Shown here: one piece after another, positions 5,615 through 38,800 of the stretch
Position numbering within the stretch: the stretch's first letter is position 1
Layout: every line of letters starts with the position of its first letter
Sequence record: NC_073077.1
Direction: 5' to 3' (one strand)
DNA from: Escherichia phage vB_Eco_Maverick
DNA: 42,624 bases
Notes under the pieces: generated by a model
Told to the model about the DNA's origin: nothing
What the model saw: only the letters and a program-made list of their open reading frames with translations
Databases searched by the model: none
Program-made: the position numbers and the translations under genes

Positions 5615-8600
5615 CGATTATCTACGACGTCACTGGGCATAAAGGCGGCGGCGGCAAACAGCACACCCCGCAGGAAACGCCGGATAGCCTGCATTCCCTG
5701 GCTAAAATTCGCATCTTGCTTGCGCTAGGGGAAGGGGAATTCGAAAGTATTACCAGCGACAGCGAATTACGGCAGCGTGTATATCTGGACGGCACGCCGA
5801 TCCAGAACGCCGACCTGTCGGAAAACTTCCCCGGCGCGCGCGTGGAGTTCCGCCCAGGCACACAGCACCAGGACGTGATCCACGGATTTTCAGCGGTGGA
5901 AAGTGAGCAATCCGTAGGCGTAAAACTGGAAAACGGCACGCCGTGGGTGCGCCAGATTAACGACACCAGTCTTGACGCCGTGCGCATTCGAATCGGCATT
6001 CCGGCCCTGTACACCAACGAAGACAACGGCGACCTGGTGGGCGGGCGCATCGACTATAAGATAGTTGTGTATACGGATAACGCCGACCCGCGTGAGTTCA
6101 GATTCGCCGCCGTTGGTAAAACAATGTCGCTATATGAGCGCGACCACCGCATCGAATTACCTCCGAACGTTAACACCGGCTGGCGCGTGGAGGTGCACCG
6201 CATAACGGCAGACTCCACATCGGCGAAAGTGGTTAATGATATCCGGGTGCAGTCCATCACTGAGATTATTGACGCCCGCCTGCGTTACCCGCTAACCGCG
6301 CTGTTGTTTGTGGAGTTCGACGCCAAAGCGTTCCAGAACATCCCGCGCGTGTCCATTAAGTGCAAAGGTCGCAAAGTTCTAATACCGAACAACTACGACC
6401 CGATCAATCATACCTATTCCGGGGACTGGGACGGCACGTTTAAACGCGCATGGACGGATAACCCTGCGTGGCACTGGTACGATATTTGTATTACTGAGCG
6501 CTTCGGCCTCGGTCGGCGTATCAAACCGCAAATGCTAAACCGATACGCGCTCTACCAGATTGCGCAGCGCTGCGATCAGTTGGTCAGCGACGGCAACGGT
6601 GGTCGAGAAATCCGCTTTAAGAATGATATGTACATTCAGTCACAGACGGATGCCTGGACCGTGCTTAAGGATTTAGCCGCTATCTTTGCCGGTATGACCT
6701 GGTGGGGAAATCAGATGTTGAATATCGTCAGTGACCAGCCGGTCGCAGCGGTATCGCACACCATCACCAACGCCTCGGTCATTGATGGTCGATTCGACTA
6801 CGCGTCCGGCAGCCAGAAAACTCGATATTCCACATTCGCGGTAGCATACGGCAACCCGAAGAACCACTATGAAGATGCCATTGCTACGGGGCAGCGTGTC
6901 GAACTGGTACGCCGCCATAAGATTAACCGTCTGGACATCACGGCGATCGGCTGTACGCGTGAATCTGAAGCGCAACGCCGCGGGCACTGGGCGCTAATCT
7001 CCAACCAGCTTGACCAGCAAGTTAGCTTTAAGGTTGGCATGGAGGGACTTTTCTTTATTCCGGGTAGCGTAGTCGCGATCGCGGATACAAACATTTCTGG
7101 CGGCTTCGAGACTCGCGGCGGTCGCCTGTTGTCGGATCCTGGCACGCGGACGGTGCTGAACACAGACAGCGAAATCACGTTCCGCCCTGGCGATAAATTC
7201 CTGGTACGCACCGATAGCGGTAATGTGGAGACTCGCGAGATCGCCAGCGTCAACGGCAACAAGGTTACGCTAAAAACCGCACTGGATGCCGACCCGATTC
7301 CGGACCAGCCGTTTTGCGTCGATGGCAACGATATCCAGTTGCAGAAGTTCCGCATCACCGACCTGGAATATGACGACTCTACCAGCACTTTTTCAGTGCG
7401 CGGGATTGAGTACAACGATAGTAAATATGATGCCGTTGATAATGGCGCTCGCCTTGATCCGGGCATCTTTACTCAAGTGCCTGACGGCGTAATGAAGGGG
7501 CCGGAGTCCGTGACCATCACCCCGTCGCAGATTTCATCGCAAGGCCAGCTAATCACCAACGTGGATATTGTATTCCCTCCGGTGAAGGACGCCGTGGTGT
7601 ATGAAATCCAGTGGCGGCGTACCAGCTTGCAGAATATGGAAATCCAGTGGGGTAACGACTGGGTTAACATCCCACGTACGGCGTCGAACGGCGCGCACAT
7701 CCCTAACGTGTTCTCAGGTAACTACCAAGCACGCGTCCGCGCAATCGGTATGGGCGAGATTTCATCCCCGTGGGTGTCGTCTGCCATCACGCCGATAGAA
7801 GGTCGTCTCGGCGGGCTTAACGCGCCTATCATCACCAACGCGATTTCTGGCCTCCACCAAATTTTGTGGAAGTGGAACCACAACAACGCCGCGACGGATA
7901 TTTCGTACACCGAGCTTGAAGTGCGCAAGACCGGTGAAACGGAATGGAAATTTCTTACCAACGTCCCATACCCAGGGTCAGATTATGCGCAAACGTCTCT
8001 GGAGTTCGGGATCTATCAGCAGTTGCGCGCCCGTGTAGCGGATAAAATCGGCAACCTATCGGACTGGTCCGCACCGTTTGAAGGCCAGGTGAGTGACAAA
8101 GTTGACGAGTACATGAAGGGGCTTGATGACGAGTTCTTGACTTCCGAGGATGGTAAACACTTCCAGGAAGCTATTAACACGATCCCGCAAGGCATTTATG
8201 AGTCAATGCTCACCGACGCCCAGCAGCTATTCAACGCCCGCGCCGAGTACAAAGGGATTTATGCGGAAATCAAGGTGGCGTATAACGTGGCGGCAGACGC
8301 CAACAAGGCGGTAGCACAACTGGAGACGTTGATCGGCACGCGACTTGAAGACGCCGAAGCGGCGATCCACACGTTGCAGACGGCGCAGAGTACGCAAGAG
8401 CAGGCCTTCGCCCAGTATCAGCAGACTGTTGCCGCTAAGTTTTCGGAACAGGAAGCCGCCATACAGCAGGTACAAACGGCAACTGCAGACGTCGCGGGCG
8501 CACTGGCGGAGTATAAGACCCAGGTCGCGGCACAGTTCGGTCAGCAGTCCGCCGCTATCGAGCAGAAGATGACGTCTTCGTTTAACCACTCCGGTGGTAG

Positions 8601-13401: not shown

Positions 13402-13430
13402 AATATAATGCAACCAATCTAATTATGCAA
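13402..13430 (-). promoter_or_regulatory. sigma70-like promoter TTGCAT-N17-TATATT embedded in tandem ATTGGTTGCAT motifs
   Basis: Minus-strand reading aTTGGTTGCATaattagaTTGGTTGCATTATATT; -35 and -10 hexamers separated by 17 nt. Confidence 0.4.
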
Positions 13431-25829: not shown

Positions 25830-25928
25830 ATTGGTTGCCGATATGGGAATTCCCATATCGCTAAACGGTTAATTTGTGCGCGCATTGGTTGCCATTTTGA
25901 GTGTTTTTATCTGGTCGTATTGGTTGCC
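25830..25928 (+). repeat. three direct ATTGGTTGCC repeats flanking a perfect 20-bp palindrome
   Basis: ATTGGTTGCC at 25830, 25884 and 25919; GATATGGGAATTCCCATATC at 25840-25859. Confidence 0.8.
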
Positions 25929-26295: not shown

Positions 26296-26324
26296 TTGCA
26301 TTCACCCCAGCACCCTGCTATATT
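26296..26324 (+). promoter_or_regulatory. sigma70-like promoter TTGCAT-N17-TATATT inside ATTGGTTGCA motifs
   Basis: TTGCAT 26296-26301, 17-nt spacer, TATATT 26319-26324, about 28 nt upstream of ATG 26353. Confidence 0.4.
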
Positions 26325-26352: not shown

Positions 26353-26802
26353 ATGGAACACGAAGACCTGGTCGACGAATTGCTTGAGGCTGAGAACAAA
26401 GCTGATTTGCAAGCACGCGCAGCATACATGGTCGGCAACATTAAGAAATCGCGCCACTACGCCGGATTGCGTGTAAAGGCGCAAGAGGACCGAACAATGA
26501 AAGCATTAATCTGGAATTACACAATGGCTGTGGCGAAGCTGTACGAAGCAAAACACACAAACGGCAACGCAGACGACGCGCGCCAGGCTGTCATCCTGGC
26601 CCAGCAGGGAATCATGAACGCGTTCGACGATATGTTTGCCAGCCTGGACGAACTGGAACCGCTGCGCGTGGCAATCTGCGAATATGCGATGGCATTTGCC
26701 CGTGAGCGCCTGGCGTATCGCTTTGGTATCGGCGAGACGGCAGTGACAAACGTCGCCCGGATTAAAGCCCAGCGCGAACTATTCGCCCAGCTTGCGAAAT
26801 AA
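26353..26802 (+). CDS. hypothetical protein
   Basis: 149-aa ORF with GAGGA Shine-Dalgarno; first gene after the iteron region. Confidence 0.55.
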   Translation: MEHEDLVDELLEAENKADLQARAAYMVGNIKKSRHYAGLRVKAQEDRTMKALIWNYTMAVAKLYEAKHTNGNADDARQAVILAQQGIMNAFDDMFASLDELEPLRVAICEYAMAFARERLAYRFGIGETAVTNVARIKAQRELFAQLAK

Positions 26803-32886: not shown

Positions 32887-34407
32887 ATGACCGTTAACGT
32901 TGACAACCAGCACCCGCTCTATGCGCGCATCGCGCCAGAGTGGAAAATGATCCGCGATTGTGTGGCAGGGGAGCGCGCCGTGAAGGCGTGCGGCCCCTTG
33001 TACTTGCCTCATCCCGCCAGTGGCGACAATACGGACCCGAAAGCACGGGCGCGGTATAAGGCGTACAAGCAACGCGCTGTATTCCTGAACGCCACCGCCC
33101 GCACACTTAACGCGCTGTTAGGCGTTGCCTTTGCTAAACCGGTAAGTCTGGACCTTTCCGGGGCGATGGCTGACCTGATTGACGACGTAGACGGCAGCGG
33201 TATGCCTCTGCCGCAACTACTGCGCGGTGCTATGTCGGAAGTGCTGCAATCAGGCCGTGCGGGCTTTATGGTGGACTACGATCGCCAGGCGCATTTTGAT
33301 GAACTGGGTAACGTAGTTCCGCAGACAGCCGCCGAGATGGCGTCACACCGCCCTCTTATCCGCCTGTACACGGCAGAACAGATCATCAACTGGCGGCAGA
33401 CCCACGGCGTCGATACGCTAATTGTGCTGAAGGAAACGGACGAAATCAGCACCGAAGACCCGGACGACTTCGCAAACCACGAAGTAACAATCTGGACCGA
33501 GCTTCGCATGATTAACGGTGCGGCACACGCCCGCCGCTGGTACTACAACGCGGACACGTCCGAGGTGCAAATGGACTTGCCGCGCGGCTTCACCCGAACC
33601 GACCTTGTACCACTGGTGGATGCTGCCGGTAACGCGCTTACGCAACTACCGTTTTGCTGGTGCGGTGCGGTGGACAACAACGCAACGCCTGACGCCGCTC
33701 CGCTGGCGGATATCGCATCCATCAACATTAAGCACTACAACGCCGAAGCGGACGTCGCCGAGATTGCGCACATCGTGGGCCAGCCTACCCTAGTTGCGAC
33801 GGGCTTGACCCAATCATGGGCGGACAAGAACCTGAAGGGCGGCATTGCCCTCGGTGCGACTAAGGGCGTTATCCTGGGCCAGAACATGGACGCTAAACTG
33901 ATCCAGGCGGAGGAGCGCAACTTGTCTGTTGCACTGTGTGAGCGTCGCGAATTGCAAATGGCTAAACTTGGCGCGGCCCTGGTCGAGAAGGGGACCGCAC
34001 CTAAGACGGCAACGGAAGCGGCCTACGATGCGCAGACTGATAACAGTATCCTGTCACTGATCGCCGGTAACGTCGAGAAGGCTTTCAACCGTGCGCTGCA
34101 AATCGTCCAGCTATTCACGGGCGACACCGCCGACCAGCGTGTGACGCTGAATAAGTTCTACACCGAAATCACGGTTGATGCGCAGCTTATGACCGCGATG
34201 ATGTCGGGTGTGCAGACGGGTACGGTCCGCCTGGCTGACTTCATCAAGTGGATGATGGCGCAGGGTGTCATCGACGACTCGCAAACCGTCGAGCAGGTGG
34301 AAGACGAATTGCGAAATCAGAATCCATTGCCTCAAATGTCCCCTGATGCGGTAGAATCTACCGAAGAAGACCCGGACAAGGTAGCGGACAATGGCGAAGA
34401 CAATTAA
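32887..34407 (+). CDS. portal protein
   Basis: 506-aa ORF directly after the terminase with acidic C-terminus; size and position typical of portal. Confidence 0.8.
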   Translation: MTVNVDNQHPLYARIAPEWKMIRDCVAGERAVKACGPLYLPHPASGDNTDPKARARYKAYKQRAVFLNATARTLNALLGVAFAKPVSLDLSGAMADLIDDVDGSGMPLPQLLRGAMSEVLQSGRAGFMVDYDRQAHFDELGNVVPQTAAEMASHRPLIRLYTAEQIINWRQTHGVDTLIVLKETDEISTEDPDDFANHEVTIWTELRMINGAAHARRWYYNADTSEVQMDLPRGFTRTDLVPLVDAAGNALTQLPFCWCGAVDNNATPDAAPLADIASINIKHYNAEADVAEIAHIVGQPTLVATGLTQSWADKNLKGGIALGATKGVILGQNMDAKLIQAEERNLSVALCERRELQMAKLGAALVEKGTAPKTATEAAYDAQTDNSILSLIAGNVEKAFNRALQIVQLFTGDTADQRVTLNKFYTEITVDAQLMTAMMSGVQTGTVRLADFIKWMMAQGVIDDSQTVEQVEDELRNQNPLPQMSPDAVESTEEDPDKVADNGEDN

Positions 34408-35494
34408 TCAACATTTGGCGGATCGAATGATTCGCCGTCACATCTTCACCCAGCGCCTGAGCAATGATCAGGCGCGGAGGGTGCTGGCTATGTGGGAGAA
34501 GTTCCGGCCCACTTTACTTGGTAAGCTGACCGAGTTACTTGATGGCAAAAAGTCCATGAGCAACAAGGCACTTACCACACTGTTAACCCAAATCGACAAG
34601 ACCGTCAAAACGGAACTGCGCGCCGAGTTTAAAGTGCTGGCGGAGAGCCTTCAGGAGTTCGCCGACACCGAGGCTGATTATCTCGCGGACACACTAACGG
34701 CAGCGATCCAGCCCGCTGTCGCTGTACCAGCGGTTGAGGTGGTGGGTGTAGTTACGGGCGCGCAGATTGCAGCGACTGCAATGAAAAACCCGTTCCAGGG
34801 AAACACCATGATGCAATGGCCTGATTCACTTTCCGAGTGGACTAGGACGCAGATCGGCAATCAGGTGCGCGCTGGATTCATCCAGGGCAAGCCGACGATG
34901 GAAATTATCGCGGATGTGAGGCGCGCGCTAGGCGGTCGTAGTGCGCAAGCAATCTCAAGCGTTGTTAAGTCCGCGGTCAACCACTATGCGGCGACCGCCC
35001 GCGAATTAATGGTAAAAGCTAATGACGATATTCTCGAAGGTCGCCAATGGTTGGCTACATTGGACACGCATACTTCTCCCATGTGCCAGCTACGCGATCG
35101 CCTGTTTTATCCGGTTGATGTTACCCCCGACACCAAAGGAAAGCGCGGCGGGAAAGTGGTGGCGGGGTCACAATATGGCGCTGGTCCGGGCAAGCTGCAT
35201 TATTGCTGCCGTTCGACGGAGACGTGGAAAGTCAAAGGTATGGAAGATTGGCCCAGTGGTAAGCGTCCGGCACTGAAGGCTGACGCAGGCAGATTGCTGA
35301 GTGAGCAGGTCGACGCGCAGACTGATTTCTTCTCATGGGTGCAGCGCCAGCCGCGCCATATTCTGGAGGAATTATATGGGGTGCAGCGCGCCGATCAGAT
35401 TATGCGCGGCGTGAAAGTGCCGAAGATGTTCACCGATACTGGCGAACTAATGACTATTGCACAGCTTAAAAACCGGGGGTTATGGCGTGATTAA
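34391..35494 (+). CDS. minor head protein (Mu F / SPP1 gp7-like head morphogenesis protein)
   Basis: 367 aa following the portal; conserved-looking segment WLATLDTHTSPMCQLRDRLFYPVD as in head morphogenesis proteins. Confidence 0.7.
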   Translation: MAKTINQHLADRMIRRHIFTQRLSNDQARRVLAMWEKFRPTLLGKLTELLDGKKSMSNKALTTLLTQIDKTVKTELRAEFKVLAESLQEFADTEADYLADTLTAAIQPAVAVPAVEVVGVVTGAQIAATAMKNPFQGNTMMQWPDSLSEWTRTQIGNQVRAGFIQGKPTMEIIADVRRALGGRSAQAISSVVKSAVNHYAATARELMVKANDDILEGRQWLATLDTHTSPMCQLRDRLFYPVDVTPDTKGKRGGKVVAGSQYGAGPGKLHYCCRSTETWKVKGMEDWPSGKRPALKADAGRLLSEQVDAQTDFFSWVQRQPRHILEELYGVQRADQIMRGVKVPKMFTDTGELMTIAQLKNRGLWRD

Positions 35495-35816
35495 GTATGC
35501 AGCGATTGGGCTGGTTATCGGTCTGGTGGTAGGATTCTGGCTAGGTGACTCCTATCGCGCTGGCGTAGTGGCGGGGGCGGCGCAAGAAGCGCAAGCAGAA
35601 GCCCAACGGCAGCAAACTAAAGTTATTGAGCGCTCCGTGCAGGCCGAACAAGCCCGCGACGTAGAATACCGGACTATCACGAAAGAGGTTGTTAAATATG
35701 TTACGCGCCCTAACCGCCCTGATTGTAGTTTTGATGCTGAGCGCGTGCGGATCAAGCAACGTGCCGTTGATGCCGCTAACGGAGTCGGCACTGCGACCGC
35801 CGTGCAAGTTCGATAA
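35457..35816 (+). CDS. i-spanin (Rz-like) candidate
   Basis: N-terminal transmembrane helix (AAIGLVIGLVVGFWLG) followed by a charged coiled coil; contains an embedded out-of-frame lipoprotein ORF; true start may be an internal GTG. Confidence 0.5.
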   Translation: MHSLKTGGYGVIKYAAIGLVIGLVVGFWLGDSYRAGVVAGAAQEAQAEAQRQQTKVIERSVQAEQARDVEYRTITKEVVKYVTRPNRPDCSFDAERVRIKQRAVDAANGVGTATAVQVR

Positions 35817-35928
35817 CCCGTCCGCGGACCCCGACGAAGATTTGATGATTGACGTGAAAAATATGGAATGCGGCGCGAAGCTAAGGGCGCAAGTGCTGGA
35901 TTTGCAGAAAATAATTCGGGGGCTGTGA
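35689..35928 (+). CDS. o-spanin (Rz1-like outer-membrane lipoprotein) candidate
   Basis: Signal peptide plus lipobox LMLSAC, Pro-rich mature part, embedded in the +1 frame of the i-spanin candidate. Confidence 0.55.
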   Translation: MLNMLRALTALIVVLMLSACGSSNVPLMPLTESALRPPCKFDNPSADPDEDLMIDVKNMECGAKLRAQVLDLQKIIRGL

Positions 35929-35942
35929 TGGCCCCCTTTTGT
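35918..35942. terminator. hairpin terminator between convergent genes
   Basis: gggggc-tgtgatg-gccccc stem followed by tttt on the plus strand. Confidence 0.55.
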
Positions 35943-36710
35943 TAGCGCGGAATACCGCAGATTTCGTTTAACGTCTTCACGTCCAGCGCCACCGCCGTGG
36001 ATTTTGGCTTGTCAGGGTAAGGAATGAACTGTTCCACTTCAGGCCACGCCTTGATCAGCTTCTTATCGGTATTGTGCATATCCAGCACACCGGTAACGGT
36101 TAGTTTGAACGCGTCATAATTAGCTCGCAACTCGCGGCGGGCCTTGTCGTTGCGATCCAGGCACTTACAGAAATCATGGTCCGCCGGGTAGTCTACGCGA
36201 CCGCGCGGAAGATATATCGGCAGCGATTTTCCGTCCTCGTCCACTTCGCACACTGAAGCCAGCATAACTTCCTCGTACCCCGGTACGATATCACCGAGAT
36301 CGGGAGATAGCTTGTTCATATATTTCTCTTCCCAGTATCCGCGGTGCAGGCGGTATCGGTATCCATCGCCGCTCAATGATACGGTGCGAACATTACCGCC
36401 TGCGTTGATATCGAATCCGGCGCTATAAACGCTGCCGATGCCTTTTGGCCGGTCGGAGTTATAGCTATACGTCGCCTTGTCGGTGTAAACGCTAACGCCA
36501 TACATCTGCGACTGGTTATCGCGGATTTCTGCGATATATGCGCGTAACTCGGCGAACGTGCGAATGCCTTCCGGCATACAGTCCAGCGTAATGGCGTACG
36601 CCAAGTCGCGAGAGTCCATCATGATGGATTTTGCTTCGGTCGCGATTTCATGGTCGCGCAGGATGTTAGCCAGAATCTTGTTTTTAACGTCTTTTGTCAG
36701 TCTCATTTTT
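35942..36710 (-). CDS. hypothetical protein, moron-like gene on the opposite strand inside the structural module
   Basis: 256-aa product starting MRLTKDVKNKIL at ATG 36710; own promoter and leader upstream; the longer frame to 37114 is antisense to the scaffold gene. Confidence 0.55.
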
Positions 36711-36734
36711 GCGTCCTCGTTGTTGGTGTGCAAC

Positions 36735-36763
36735 CAATATATGCAACCAATACGCGGATTGCA
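36735..36763 (-). promoter_or_regulatory. sigma70-like promoter TTGCAA-N17-TATATT for the moron gene
   Basis: Palindromic TTGCAA at 36758-36763 and minus-strand TATATT at plus 36735-36740; followed by leader ggttgcacaccaaca shared with the 26353 gene. Confidence 0.4.
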
Positions 36764-36854
36764 AGCGAATTTTGCGATTATTTTTATCACTGATAATATT
36801 AGAGGCGTGAAGTCGAGCGGGTGGCCCGCTCTGCCACAATCCCAGGGGGATAGC

Positions 36855-37559
36855 ATGAAACTTACTAAAGCAGAATATGACGCGTTGCCGGAAGGTATGA
36901 AGGCGCTTTTTGTTGCCGATGGCGACGGGTATAAATCAACTTTCATGACCGCAGAAGAAGTACAGGCGGAAATCAAGGGTCTGAAAGACAACAACGCGAA
37001 GCTGGTGAGCGAGAAGAAAGCAGAAGCTGAACGCCGCGCCGAAGCTGAGCGCCTTGCGAAAGAGAAAGAGGAAGCCGCCGCGCGCAAAAATGGCGACCTC
37101 GAAGCGATCGACAAGTCCTGGAAAGATAAGTTTGCGAAACACGAAGCAGATACATCGGGAAAAATCGAAGCCTACCGCAAGCAGATCCACGATCTAACCA
37201 TCGGCAGCGCTGCCAAAGACCTGGCGTCGAAGCTGTTCGGTAAGAATGCGGGAATCATGCAACGCCACGTAATGGACCGCCTGACGCTGGAAGACGGCGA
37301 AGACGGCAGCTTGAAAGTGCGTGTCTTGCAGGATGGCAAACCGTCCGCGCTGACTATGGAAGAGCTTGAAAAAGAGTTCCGTAATAACGCCGATTTTGCA
37401 TCAGTCCTGGCTGGCACGCCAGCCGGTGGCGCGCCTAGCAAACCGACGCAGGTTGTCGAAGATGTGAAGTCTAAAATTACGATGGGCCACAGCTTCGGTA
37501 TCACTGACCTTACGAAACAGGCAGGTGAAATCATCGCTAAGATGGGCGACGACGAGTAA
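36855..37559 (+). CDS. capsid scaffolding protein
   Basis: 234 aa, highly charged coiled-coil centre (EKKAEAERRAEAERLAKEKEEAAARK), located directly upstream of the major capsid gene; AGGGGGA Shine-Dalgarno. Confidence 0.6.
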   Translation: MKLTKAEYDALPEGMKALFVADGDGYKSTFMTAEEVQAEIKGLKDNNAKLVSEKKAEAERRAEAERLAKEKEEAAARKNGDLEAIDKSWKDKFAKHEADTSGKIEAYRKQIHDLTIGSAAKDLASKLFGKNAGIMQRHVMDRLTLEDGEDGSLKVRVLQDGKPSALTMEELEKEFRNNADFASVLAGTPAGGAPSKPTQVVEDVKSKITMGHSFGITDLTKQAGEIIAKMGDDE

Positions 37560-37656
37560 GCAGATTGCCCGCGAAAGCGGGCAATTTTGCGAGCGCGTAA
37601 ATCTAAGGTAACATTAACGTCACTGGGCGAATGCTCACAACTCAAAGGATTTCGAT

Positions 37657-38757
37657 ATGTCTTTAACAGTGTTCCAGCGTAAACTCGTTACCGCGGTTAC
37701 GCAAATGATCCCCGACAACCTGAACGTTTTCAACGCCGCCGCCAATGGCGCTGTTGTTCTCGGTACTGGTGAAGTGCTGAAGGATGTTATTGAGAAAATG
37801 TCCGTAGGCTTGATCGCCAACCTCGTTACCGACCGTAACGCCTACGCCCCCGTCGGCACTCCGGCAACCGCGAAAGTTCTGGCGCGTATGCTGACCAACT
37901 CGGTTAACCTTTCCGCAAAAGTGGGTCCGGTAGCAATCACTAAGGCTATGATGGCTAAGATCGAAACCAACGTTAACAGCGTTGCGGCTGAGATTGCGGC
38001 ACAGGCTACTCAAGCGATTATGCTGCACTACCTGAAAGCTGGTATCGGCGCAAGTAAAGCGGCGATCGAAAGCAACGCAGCGGCAAAATACACCCAACCG
38101 GCGCGCGTTGATGGTGTTGGTGGTCGCACCTTCCCGACCCTGGCAGACTTCCCGCTGGCGGCTTCCAAGTTCGGCGATCAGGCGTCTTTGATTAAATCCT
38201 GGTTTATGGACGGCGTTACCTGGGCAAACTTCATTGCGTACCAGGCACTCCCTTCCGCTGAACAGGTATTCGCAATTGGCGATCTACAGGTAATGGGTGA
38301 TGGCCTGGGCCGTCGATTCATTATCTCCGATGCCGCTGCCGATGCTATGGGTGCTGGTAACATGCTGGGTCTGGTTCCTGGCGCGGTTGCAGTTACCACC
38401 AACGGCCTCGATATGCTGGCGCAGGAGAAAGGCGGTAACGAGAACATCGAACGCTGGTGGCAGGGCGAGTTCGACTTCAACGTGGCCGTTAAAGGCTACC
38501 GTCTGAAGGCGTCCGCTCGTACCCCGATCGAAGGTGTGCGCTCGTTCAAACTGGACGATATTACCACTTCCGCTAACTGGGAACTGGACCAGGGCCAGGT
38601 AGACAACGCACCGGCAACCGTGCAGGACGTTGGCGCTGTGGGTGATGGCGATACTAAAGGCCGTCGTAAGACCCAGGCCGCACAGGCAGTGCCTACCCGT
38701 CACATCAAGGAAACCGCTGGCGTACTGGTTACGCTGACGGCGACTACCGCGTCTTAA
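37657..38757 (+). CDS. major capsid protein
   Basis: 366-aa ORF after the scaffold, followed by a strong terminator; composition typical of HK97-fold capsid proteins. Confidence 0.8.
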   Translation: MSLTVFQRKLVTAVTQMIPDNLNVFNAAANGAVVLGTGEVLKDVIEKMSVGLIANLVTDRNAYAPVGTPATAKVLARMLTNSVNLSAKVGPVAITKAMMAKIETNVNSVAAEIAAQATQAIMLHYLKAGIGASKAAIESNAAAKYTQPARVDGVGGRTFPTLADFPLAASKFGDQASLIKSWFMDGVTWANFIAYQALPSAEQVFAIGDLQVMGDGLGRRFIISDAAADAMGAGNMLGLVPGAVAVTTNGLDMLAQEKGGNENIERWWQGEFDFNVAVKGYRLKASARTPIEGVRSFKLDDITTSANWELDQGQVDNAPATVQDVGAVGDGDTKGRRKTQAAQAVPTRHIKETAGVLVTLTATTAS

Positions 38758-38775
38758 CGGGCGCACATCCCAAAT

Positions 38776-38800
38776 GGGCGGGCTTATGCCCGCCTTTTTT
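38776..38800 (+). terminator. rho-independent terminator after the major capsid gene
   Basis: gggcgggc-ttat-gcccgcc stem followed by tttttt. Confidence 0.8.

Follow-up and report, generated by a model that had tools for sequence, protein, structure and literature searches.

Introduction

The phage protein family Nmad5 (nucleotide modification associated domain 5) takes its name from the gene neighbourhood of its members. One member has already been studied experimentally: on Tmn-expressing Escherichia coli, Yamashita et al. (2025) obtained independent escape mutants that carried nmad5 K216E in phage SM_A8 or K296E in phage SMS22, both Dhillonviruses, and reverting only this substitution restored Tmn sensitivity while introducing it alone gave resistance (PMC11846954). 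Phage deleted for nmad5 was viable and remained sensitive to Tmn, the gene resisted cloning, apparently through toxicity, and the authors assume that Nmad5 is a DNA-modification enzyme (PMC11846954). Tmn itself binds phage proteins directly via its cytosolic arms, and in RIIB of phage T2 one residue separates Tmn binding from Tmn activation (PMC13001434). In phage M6, around another member of the family, the 5-NedU pathway of thymidine hypermodification has been rebuilt in vitro from purified gp51, gp52, gp53 and gp54 (PMC8989533). In this report we describe nmad5 of Escherichia phage vB_Eco_Maverick (NC_073077.1), located on the minus strand at 35942-36706 of the 42,624-nucleotide stretch of DNA that was analysed, called the window hereafter.

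Judged from its sequence, the window is the genome of an E. coli siphophage of the Dhillonvirus type and its minus-strand open reading frame (ORF) is a real gene, the Dhillonvirus nmad5. Both gene and family were known before. To this our analysis adds that the modification label lacks support at this locus, that the Tmn-escape residue lies in a predicted invariant patch, that an exchangeable cassette slot adjoins the gene, and that the putative promoter belongs to a phage-wide family. We give a probability of roughly 50% to the reading that Nmad5 is a conserved, dispensable, non-structural binding or adaptor protein, or a host-takeover protein, and not a DNA-modification catalyst. The question matters because nmad5 is one of only two known handles for Tmn-resistant Dhillonvirus therapy phages, and the modification-enzyme label derives from a gene context in another group of phages. 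Should Nmad5 prove to be a binding protein whose docking patch contains the escape residue, work on the sensing of siphophages by Tmn would turn from the chemistry of DNA to the recognition of proteins.

Identity of the Gene and Its Family

The window protein matches Pfam PF18757, the Nmad5 family, from end to end, its residues 1-253 covering profile positions 1-206 at E=3e-55 and with a score of 187.9 bits where the cut-off is 27, and this match supplies the motif that a first-pass annotation made from the sequence alone had been unable to name. A second match is to phrog_1965 (E=5e-59), whose function is unknown, and the protein carries all of the Nmad5 signature residues (RLT, T-x-x-K-L-x-x-W-P-E and L-N-x-x-x-G-[IL]-P); all 139 relatives in our alignment match PF18757 too. 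A profile search of 1.84 billion representative proteins returned 384 relatives at E<=1e-3, most of them 170-230 amino acids (aa) long. In species-representative bacterial genomes, two scans with narrow motif patterns found 0 and 2 loci, and these few loci say little beyond the family being mainly phage-borne. A search of the protein against NCBIfam returned nothing useful, PADLOC, whose library holds defence and not anti-defence proteins, gave 0 families at E<=1, and neither a signal peptide nor a transmembrane segment was found in Nmad5. Ksap1, the Dhillonvirus activator of KpAvs2, was considered as an identity and ruled out, being 74 aa long and encoded elsewhere in the genome.

The gene translates into 254 aa plus a stop codon at 35942-35944. 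We take the ATG at 36706 as the true start because GAGGA stands 7 nucleotides (nt) away and because the N-terminus is family-wide, the product beginning MRLTKD and the family alignments at MRLT. The ORF of the first-pass annotation (35942-36710, 256 aa) is accordingly real, with its start moved to 36706 and its length to 254 aa. On the minus strand the frame stays open through 36707-37114, and gene callers can give products of 334 or 390 aa. The longest mechanical ORF runs from a TTG at 37114 to 35942 (390 aa), and an in-frame ATG at 36946, exactly 80 codons 5' of 36706, yields the 334-aa product; both longer starts overlap the promoter and the scaffold gene, and the extensions are without conservation. 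It is this upstream ATG that explains why published annotations number the escape residue both K216 and K296.

Conserved Patch and Predicted Structure

Conservation in the family is concentrated in a few short motifs. Among the 139 aligned members, R2, T213, L217, W221, P222, E223, L246 and N247 are each kept in 87-99%, all of these except R2 being nearly invariant and L246 and N247 reaching at least 94%; R2, L3, I11, G104 and P229 are kept in more than 80%, T4 in 66% and H177 in 61%. The published escape residue is present in the window protein (NTDK-K216-LIKAWPE). Since 105 of the 139 members have K or R at position 216 and a single one has E, K216E is a charge reversal within the core motif of the family. 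The last 18 residues, TAVALDVKTLNEICGIPR, are identical even in a homologue with an overall identity of 35%, and their codons differ from those of the relative P0043 by 8 synonymous and 0 non-synonymous changes, and thus the constraint is on the peptide. By inspection only, no clamp-binding motif, SSB-tip (single-stranded DNA-binding protein) motif or other named short motif was seen in this tail.

An AlphaFold2 model built from the 139-sequence alignment reached a predicted local distance difference test (pLDDT) score of 91.2 and a predicted template modelling (pTM) score of 0.84; an alignment of 8 sequences had given an unusable pLDDT of 52. In the model, three N-terminal helices and a 32-residue C-terminal helix form a stalk, residues 64-176 form a beta-rich insert about 50 aa larger than the family median, W-P-E lies on two short helices, and the tail, modelled with less confidence, contains a short helix. 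The conserved N-terminus makes a beta-bridge near residue 213, which brings it next to the T-x-x-K-L motif. Nmad5 is hence predicted to be a helical stalk with a fast-evolving beta-rich head, in which R2-L3-T4, T213-x-x-K216-L-x-x-W-P-E223 and L246-N247...G-I-P would make up an invariant patch. The structure prediction suggested in the first-pass annotation delivered a confident model, but no solved structure resembled it and no enzyme fold was recognised.

We propose that transcription of the nmad5 unit would start at a host-type promoter, take in the ribosome-binding site and the coding sequence and stop at a hairpin shared with Rz1, and that Nmad5 would bind a conserved partner through the invariant patch, serving as an adaptor or host-takeover factor tied to the early replication and recombination programme of the phage. 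Such an adaptor role is consistent with the toxicity met in cloning and with the contexts of the gene in other phages. The same patch would also be the surface that meets the host Tmn pathway, by contacting either Tmn or its true trigger, and with K216E the protein would bind Tmn or that trigger non-productively, or block it. We infer a blocker, and not the loss of a trigger, because the deletion stays Tmn-sensitive while K216E escapes. The viable deletion, the toxic cloning and the K216E escape of the SM_A8 orthologue (PMC11846954) place the gene in the sphere of conflict between phage and host, in line with the first-pass annotation, by which genes of this architecture are frequently host-interaction, anti-defence or exclusion factors.

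Several points weigh against this proposal. The polar residues R2, T4, H177 (61%), T213, K216, E223 and N247 could form a catalytic or ligand site. Some members of the family stand in thymidine-hypermodification cassettes, beside a methyltransferase or beside a ParB-like gene, and the promoter type that precedes nmad5 also heads operons of uncertain temporal class. Finally, the dominant-negative interpretation of K216E is our own and not a result of Yamashita et al.

Evolutionary Rates and a Possible Anti-Defence Role

Compared with the fully annotated relative Bas84, the rate of non-synonymous substitution (dN) is 0.062 in nmad5 against 0.002-0.007 in the portal, MuF, scaffold and capsid genes, and its ratio to the synonymous rate (dN/dS) is 0.15 against about 0.03 in the head genes; dS of nmad5 is higher too. 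Between alleles of nmad5, dS reaches 0.65-0.84, compared with 0.09-0.26 in the flanks. The entropy profile and the rates both concentrate the variation in residues 45-140 (dN 0.10-0.21, dN/dS 0.14-0.26), while the C-terminal third has a dN/dS of 0.05-0.09. There is no sign of positive selection along the gene, since dN/dS peaks at 0.26 in the variable part and nowhere exceeds 1. Taken with its synteny and native composition (see below), these rates make nmad5 an old, syntenic and fast-evolving gene, and it is a dispensable one.

Such a profile could also be that of a dedicated anti-defence protein, whose variable head would bind and inhibit an immune system of the host distinct from the Tmn allele that was tested, and which K216E would retarget. 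One substitution indeed suffices for Tmn evasion (PMC11846954). The gene is dispensable and evolves fast, its changes are concentrated in the variable domain, and the divergence of its alleles is deeper than that of the flanks; it shares its predicted transcription unit with swappable cassette genes, and in the pL operon of lambdoid phages it lies behind N and a Nun-like gene. In phage lambda, accessory and anti-restriction genes such as ral occupy that place. Yet the escape mutation falls in the conserved and not in the variable part of the protein, dN/dS stays well under 1, no deletion phenotype on any defence system has been reported, and PADLOC gave no match, though its library omits anti-defence proteins. 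We regard a dedicated anti-defence function as unlikely, and such a role overlaps the adaptor model.

Genomic Contexts and the Question of DNA Modification

The assumption that Nmad5 is an enzyme of DNA modification, or a subunit that such an enzyme requires, and that Tmn senses or responds to how the phage DNA is modified, draws on the contexts of the gene in other phages. In the M6-like phages (M6 ORF056, SN1_019 and CN1), nmad5 is found inside the thymidine-hypermodification cassette, between aGPT-Pplase1 and a pyrimidine hydroxymethylase; in phage Pondi it directly follows a methyltransferase, and another member precedes a ParB-like gene. Methyltransferases are encoded elsewhere in Dhillonvirus genomes, and the protein has a semi-conserved D/E-H dyad with further polar residues. 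Against this, the model with its pLDDT of 91 has no likeness to a solved enzyme fold, and no recognisable catalytic fold or cofactor-binding motif was met in Nmad5. The M6 chemistry was reconstituted in vitro without ORF056, which is not among its components (PMC8989533), the deletion of nmad5 leaves Tmn sensitivity unchanged (PMC11846954), and Dhillonviruses are comparatively restriction-sensitive, unlike the modified Queuovirinae (PMC8594841).

The wider distribution of the gene points the same way. No hypermodification gene occurs in the annotation of Bas84 or flanks nmad5 in the window, and the lambdoid contexts lack such genes as well: there nmad5 follows N and the Nun-like gene in the pL operon and precedes kil, erf and an anti-RecBCD gene. 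Other contexts are small early genes, or a replication module beside NADAR, YAcAr, HD and ParB-like genes, and in most lineages the family resides in early replication regions. In a census of neighbours within three genes at 21 dereplicated IMG/VR loci we found DNA polymerase A, helicases, primase, SSB-like proteins and exonucleases, as well as dUTPase, Ead/Ea22, cI-like repressors and one methylase, and no aGPT-Pplase, kinase, radical S-adenosylmethionine (rSAM) protein or other hypermodification enzyme. The label "DNA modification enzyme" is thus without structural or contextual support for the Dhillonvirus Nmad5, and we consider an enzymatic role there distinctly doubtful.

Predicted Transcription Unit

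The putative nmad5 promoter consists of a -35 element TTGCAA (36764-36759), a 17-nt spacer and a -10 element TATATT (36741-36736), and is conserved in the related phages Bas84 and PTXU06. A generic promoter scan gave a single minus-strand site, no more than in shuffled sequence. The composite pattern TTGCA-N18-TATAWT, by contrast with the 0.01 occurrences expected, is found exactly 3 times in the window (13402-13430 minus, 26296-26324 plus and 36736-36764 minus strand), each time 5' of a co-oriented gene. The nmad5 leader CACCAACA..GAGGA recurs before the gene at 26353, and the stretch from the -10 element through the leader to the start codon, TATATTGGTTGCACACCAACA..GAGGA..ATG, is near-identical before these two genes. 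The predicted nmad5 promoter is in this respect a member of a phage-wide promoter family. It is overlapped by the 10-mer ATTGGTTGCA, which at one mismatch or fewer has 17 occurrences in the window against 3.3 expected, mainly intergenic and often paired or palindromic (9758, 11493/11505, 13409/13426, 16362, 23015, 25830-25928, 26200, 26291/26322, 26999, 29495 and 36729/36742). The ATTGGTTGCA family may mark a phage-specific promoter class, or an operator for some regulator.

At the other end, the hairpin at 35918-35936 has a 6-bp all-GC stem (folding free energy -13.7 kcal/mol) and is canonical as a terminator for the plus-strand Rz1 transcript; in PTXU06 it is annotated as a terminator. On the minus strand the U-run after it is offset (GAAUUAUUUU), and the hairpin plausibly serves both strands as a bidirectional terminator. 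From promoter to shared hairpin, nmad5 as a predicted antisense transcription unit of its own is well supported by sequence. The promoter and terminator that the first-pass annotation assigned to the gene are present as non-random sequence elements, the hairpin being held in common with Rz1.

Synteny and the Cassette Slot

As had been noticed at first pass, nmad5 runs against the structural module and sits between lysis or head genes and the scaffold gene: it is convergent with the Rz/Rz1 spanin genes and divergent from the scaffold gene, with the portal and a MuF-like head morphogenesis gene on one side and the major capsid gene beyond the scaffold. In Bas84 it is the sole antisense gene of the 20-kb block from terminase to tail. 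The first-pass annotation had further called it an inserted moron, and here the evidence is contrary. A tblastn search finds nmad5 at 80% coverage or more in 144 phage records, and the gene is present in all 12 Dhillonvirus-like IMG/VR loci plus one additional locus (L006), with place and orientation constant, so that the proposed comparison of syntenic relatives revealed no presence and absence of nmad5 itself. The same place and orientation hold in essentially all Dhillonviruses. Over positions 34000-38800 the window shares 98.9% identity with phages slur05 and slur06 and 94-96% with more than 100 other Dhillonviruses. The GC content of nmad5 is 0.524, and that of its third codon positions (GC3) 0.635, within or close to those of its neighbours (0.528-0.582 and 0.51-0.69).

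The gene diverges much faster than its flanks across three of the more distant loci. It is 62% identical in L022, where the Rz/Rz1 and adaptor genes are 76-77% and the other flanks 89-93% identical; 41% in L006 (flanks 71-81%); and 38% in L024 (flanks 63-84%). A recent insertion, for example of a superinfection-exclusion gene, would agree with the antisense orientation, the predicted promoter and terminator of its own, the missing structural homology and a similar antisense islet in Vibrio phage VchM-138, but it is contradicted by a synteny that persists where the flanks are only 63-84% identical, by the 144 records, by a composition equal to that of the neighbours, by the lack of a signal peptide or transmembrane segment and by the early replication regions that house the family in most lineages, and we reject it as very improbable. 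That Nmad5 is a head-assembly or capsid-packaged protein is hardly credible, as only its location among the MuF-like gene, spanins and scaffold speaks for it, against the opposite strand, the separate promoter, homologues in early operons of lambdoid and other phages, a viable deletion mutant (PMC11846954), natural deletion variants (P0047, P0053 and P0055) and searches in which capsid, scaffold, protease, portal and decoration families gave no homology and only Nmad5 and phrog_1965 matched, in agreement with the first-pass statement that no structural role could be recognised.

What does vary between relatives is the stretch that separates the start codon of nmad5 from its promoter, a slot that holds at least five unrelated small genes. 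Among the 12 loci surveyed, the gap measures 148-149 bp (the empty form, as in the window), 325, 472, 508, about 605 or 742 bp. The cassette genes are A (104-109 aa, phrog_24635, also in SM_A8), B (135 aa, no family), C (170 aa, beta-clamp-like, L017 4359-4919), D (53 aa) and E (105 aa, phrog_2510). Cassette C has its best family in phrog_3007 and also matches phrog_947 (E=9e-9) and, below the cut-off, DNA_pol3_beta_2 (E=7e-4). With its VRYYLNGVFF...ASDGHRLF sequence it resembles the beta sliding clamp of DNA polymerase III in the central domain; phrog_3007 is labelled RusA-like in PHROGs and looks misannotated. Among relatives, the occupied slot is seen in L014-L021, L024, L002 (3251-3658) and L097 (846-1160). 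The slot is a hot spot of accessory gene exchange, and the true presence/absence polymorphism lies there and not in nmad5. It offers a practical site for seeking new counter-defence genes and for inserting engineered ones.

Returning to the adaptor reading, a bolder form of it can be put forward, as a possibility only and with more doubt than belief: Nmad5 would be no modification enzyme at all but a new-fold adaptor that docks, by its invariant patch and its C-terminal peptide, on a highly conserved component of the host or the replisome, Tmn-type immunity would read the docking patch, K216E would be a dominant decoy, and the slot would be a landing pad for counter-defence genes, the beta-clamp-like one included, under an early antisense promoter.

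Further variants of the locus were seen in relatives. In L024, a gene for a 100-aa predicted lipoprotein (5738-6040, lipobox LAGC) lies 3' of nmad5 in the same antisense unit, and the putative lipoprotein is a candidate exclusion factor. In metagenomes we observed the natural nmad5 deletion variants P0047, P0053 and P0055, among them an in-frame deletion from about residue 42 to about 242, a fusion of cassette A to the last 45 or so residues, and a C-terminal fragment; all three retain the invariant C-terminal peptide. The Vibrio phage vB_VchM-138 (L012 3635-4589, gp51-gp49), an unrelated myovirus, has an Nmad5 homologue followed by a small Fis-type helix-turn-helix protein in a three-gene antisense islet among structural genes, so the antisense-islet architecture recurs independently.

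Neighbouring Genes and Feature Coordinates

The spanin pair (35487-35928), annotated in Bas84 as i-spanin and Rz-like spanin, is of the Rz/Rz1 type and follows the MuF-like gene inside the head block; the holin and endolysin genes stand apart from it, 5' of the terminase in the annotated relative. Just 5' of the ribosome-binding site of the scaffold gene there is a perfect 7-bp stem-loop, GAGCGGG-TGG-CCCGCTC (36815-36831), which has no U-run on either strand and is kept in Bas84 and PTXU06. It may act as a 5' stabiliser or processing site of the scaffold and capsid mRNA. The coordinates of the features are collected in Table 1.

Table 1. Features of the nmad5 locus in the window, with strand and basis of assignment.
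Feature	Position	Strand	Basis
G+C hairpin between convergent Rz1 and nmad5 genes	35918..35936	.	scan, RNA fold
nmad5 coding sequence, 254 aa, PF18757	35942..36706	-	translation, Pfam, phrog_1965, SM_A8 alignment
Codons of the C-terminal tail TAVALDVKTLNEICGIPR	35945..35998	-	alignment, substitution counts
Codons T213-E223, most conserved motif of the family	36038..36070	-	conservation
Codon K216, published Tmn-escape residue	36059-36061	-	alignment; PMC11846954
Codons of residues 45-140, fast-evolving (helix 3 and beta-rich insert)	36287..36574	-	entropy profile, dN/dS
Putative ribosome-binding site GAGGA, 7-nt spacer to ATG	36714..36718	-	sequence; kept in Bas84 and PTXU06
Two direct copies of (T)ATTGGTTGCA, overlapping the nmad5 promoter	36729..36752	-	repeat search
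Putative sigma-70-type promoter	36736..36764	-	scan, composite-pattern count, conservation
Divergent intergenic region nmad5/scaffold, empty form of the cassette slot	36707..36854	.	12-locus gap survey
Rz1-like o-spanin lipoprotein gene, inside the Rz-like gene 35487-35816	35698..35928	+	ORFs; Bas84 annotation
Head scaffolding gene, divergent from nmad5	36855..37559	+	ORF, translation, Bas84 annotation

Comparison with Known Systems

The closest described counterpart is the Nmad5 of SM_A8 (CDS7), an orthologue with 86% identity that aligns over 254 of 254 residues without gaps and with K216 in register. Its locus is likewise convergent with Rz1 and divergent from the scaffold gene. The two differ substantially at residues 45-140, and SM_A8 has a 104-aa cassette gene (phrog_24635) between promoter and nmad5 where the slot of the window is empty. 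The K296 numbering of SMS22, which comes from a long annotation, is reproduced when the window protein is counted from the in-frame ATG at 36946.

Within PF18757, the window protein shares its motifs and predicted fold with the viral members, but exceeds the median length of 204 aa by about 50 aa owing to the enlarged beta insert. Elsewhere the family is mostly co-oriented with the genes of an early replication region, whereas the window copy is antisense in a head module. The association with modification genes is not seen in the window; this is a feature of context, and family membership stands. The M6-like Nmad5 belongs to the same family, its C-terminal third being 38-40% identical to the window protein, yet the 5-NedU thymidine-hypermodification genes that surround it are absent in Dhillonvirus.

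Classical morons are extra genes that occur in some relatives only and are transcribed autonomously, with a promoter on one side and a terminator on the other. The nmad5 gene is like them in its antisense orientation and its predicted promoter and terminator elements, but differs as a conserved core gene of native composition, and it is the upstream cassette genes that are moron-like instead. RIIB of phage T2 resembles Nmad5 in being non-essential and in having a single residue that decides whether Tmn fires, although the two share no kinship of sequence or fold, and loss-of-function mutants of RIIB escape Tmn whereas the nmad5 deletion does not. With this difference in mind, RIIB is a possible model for how K216E may act.

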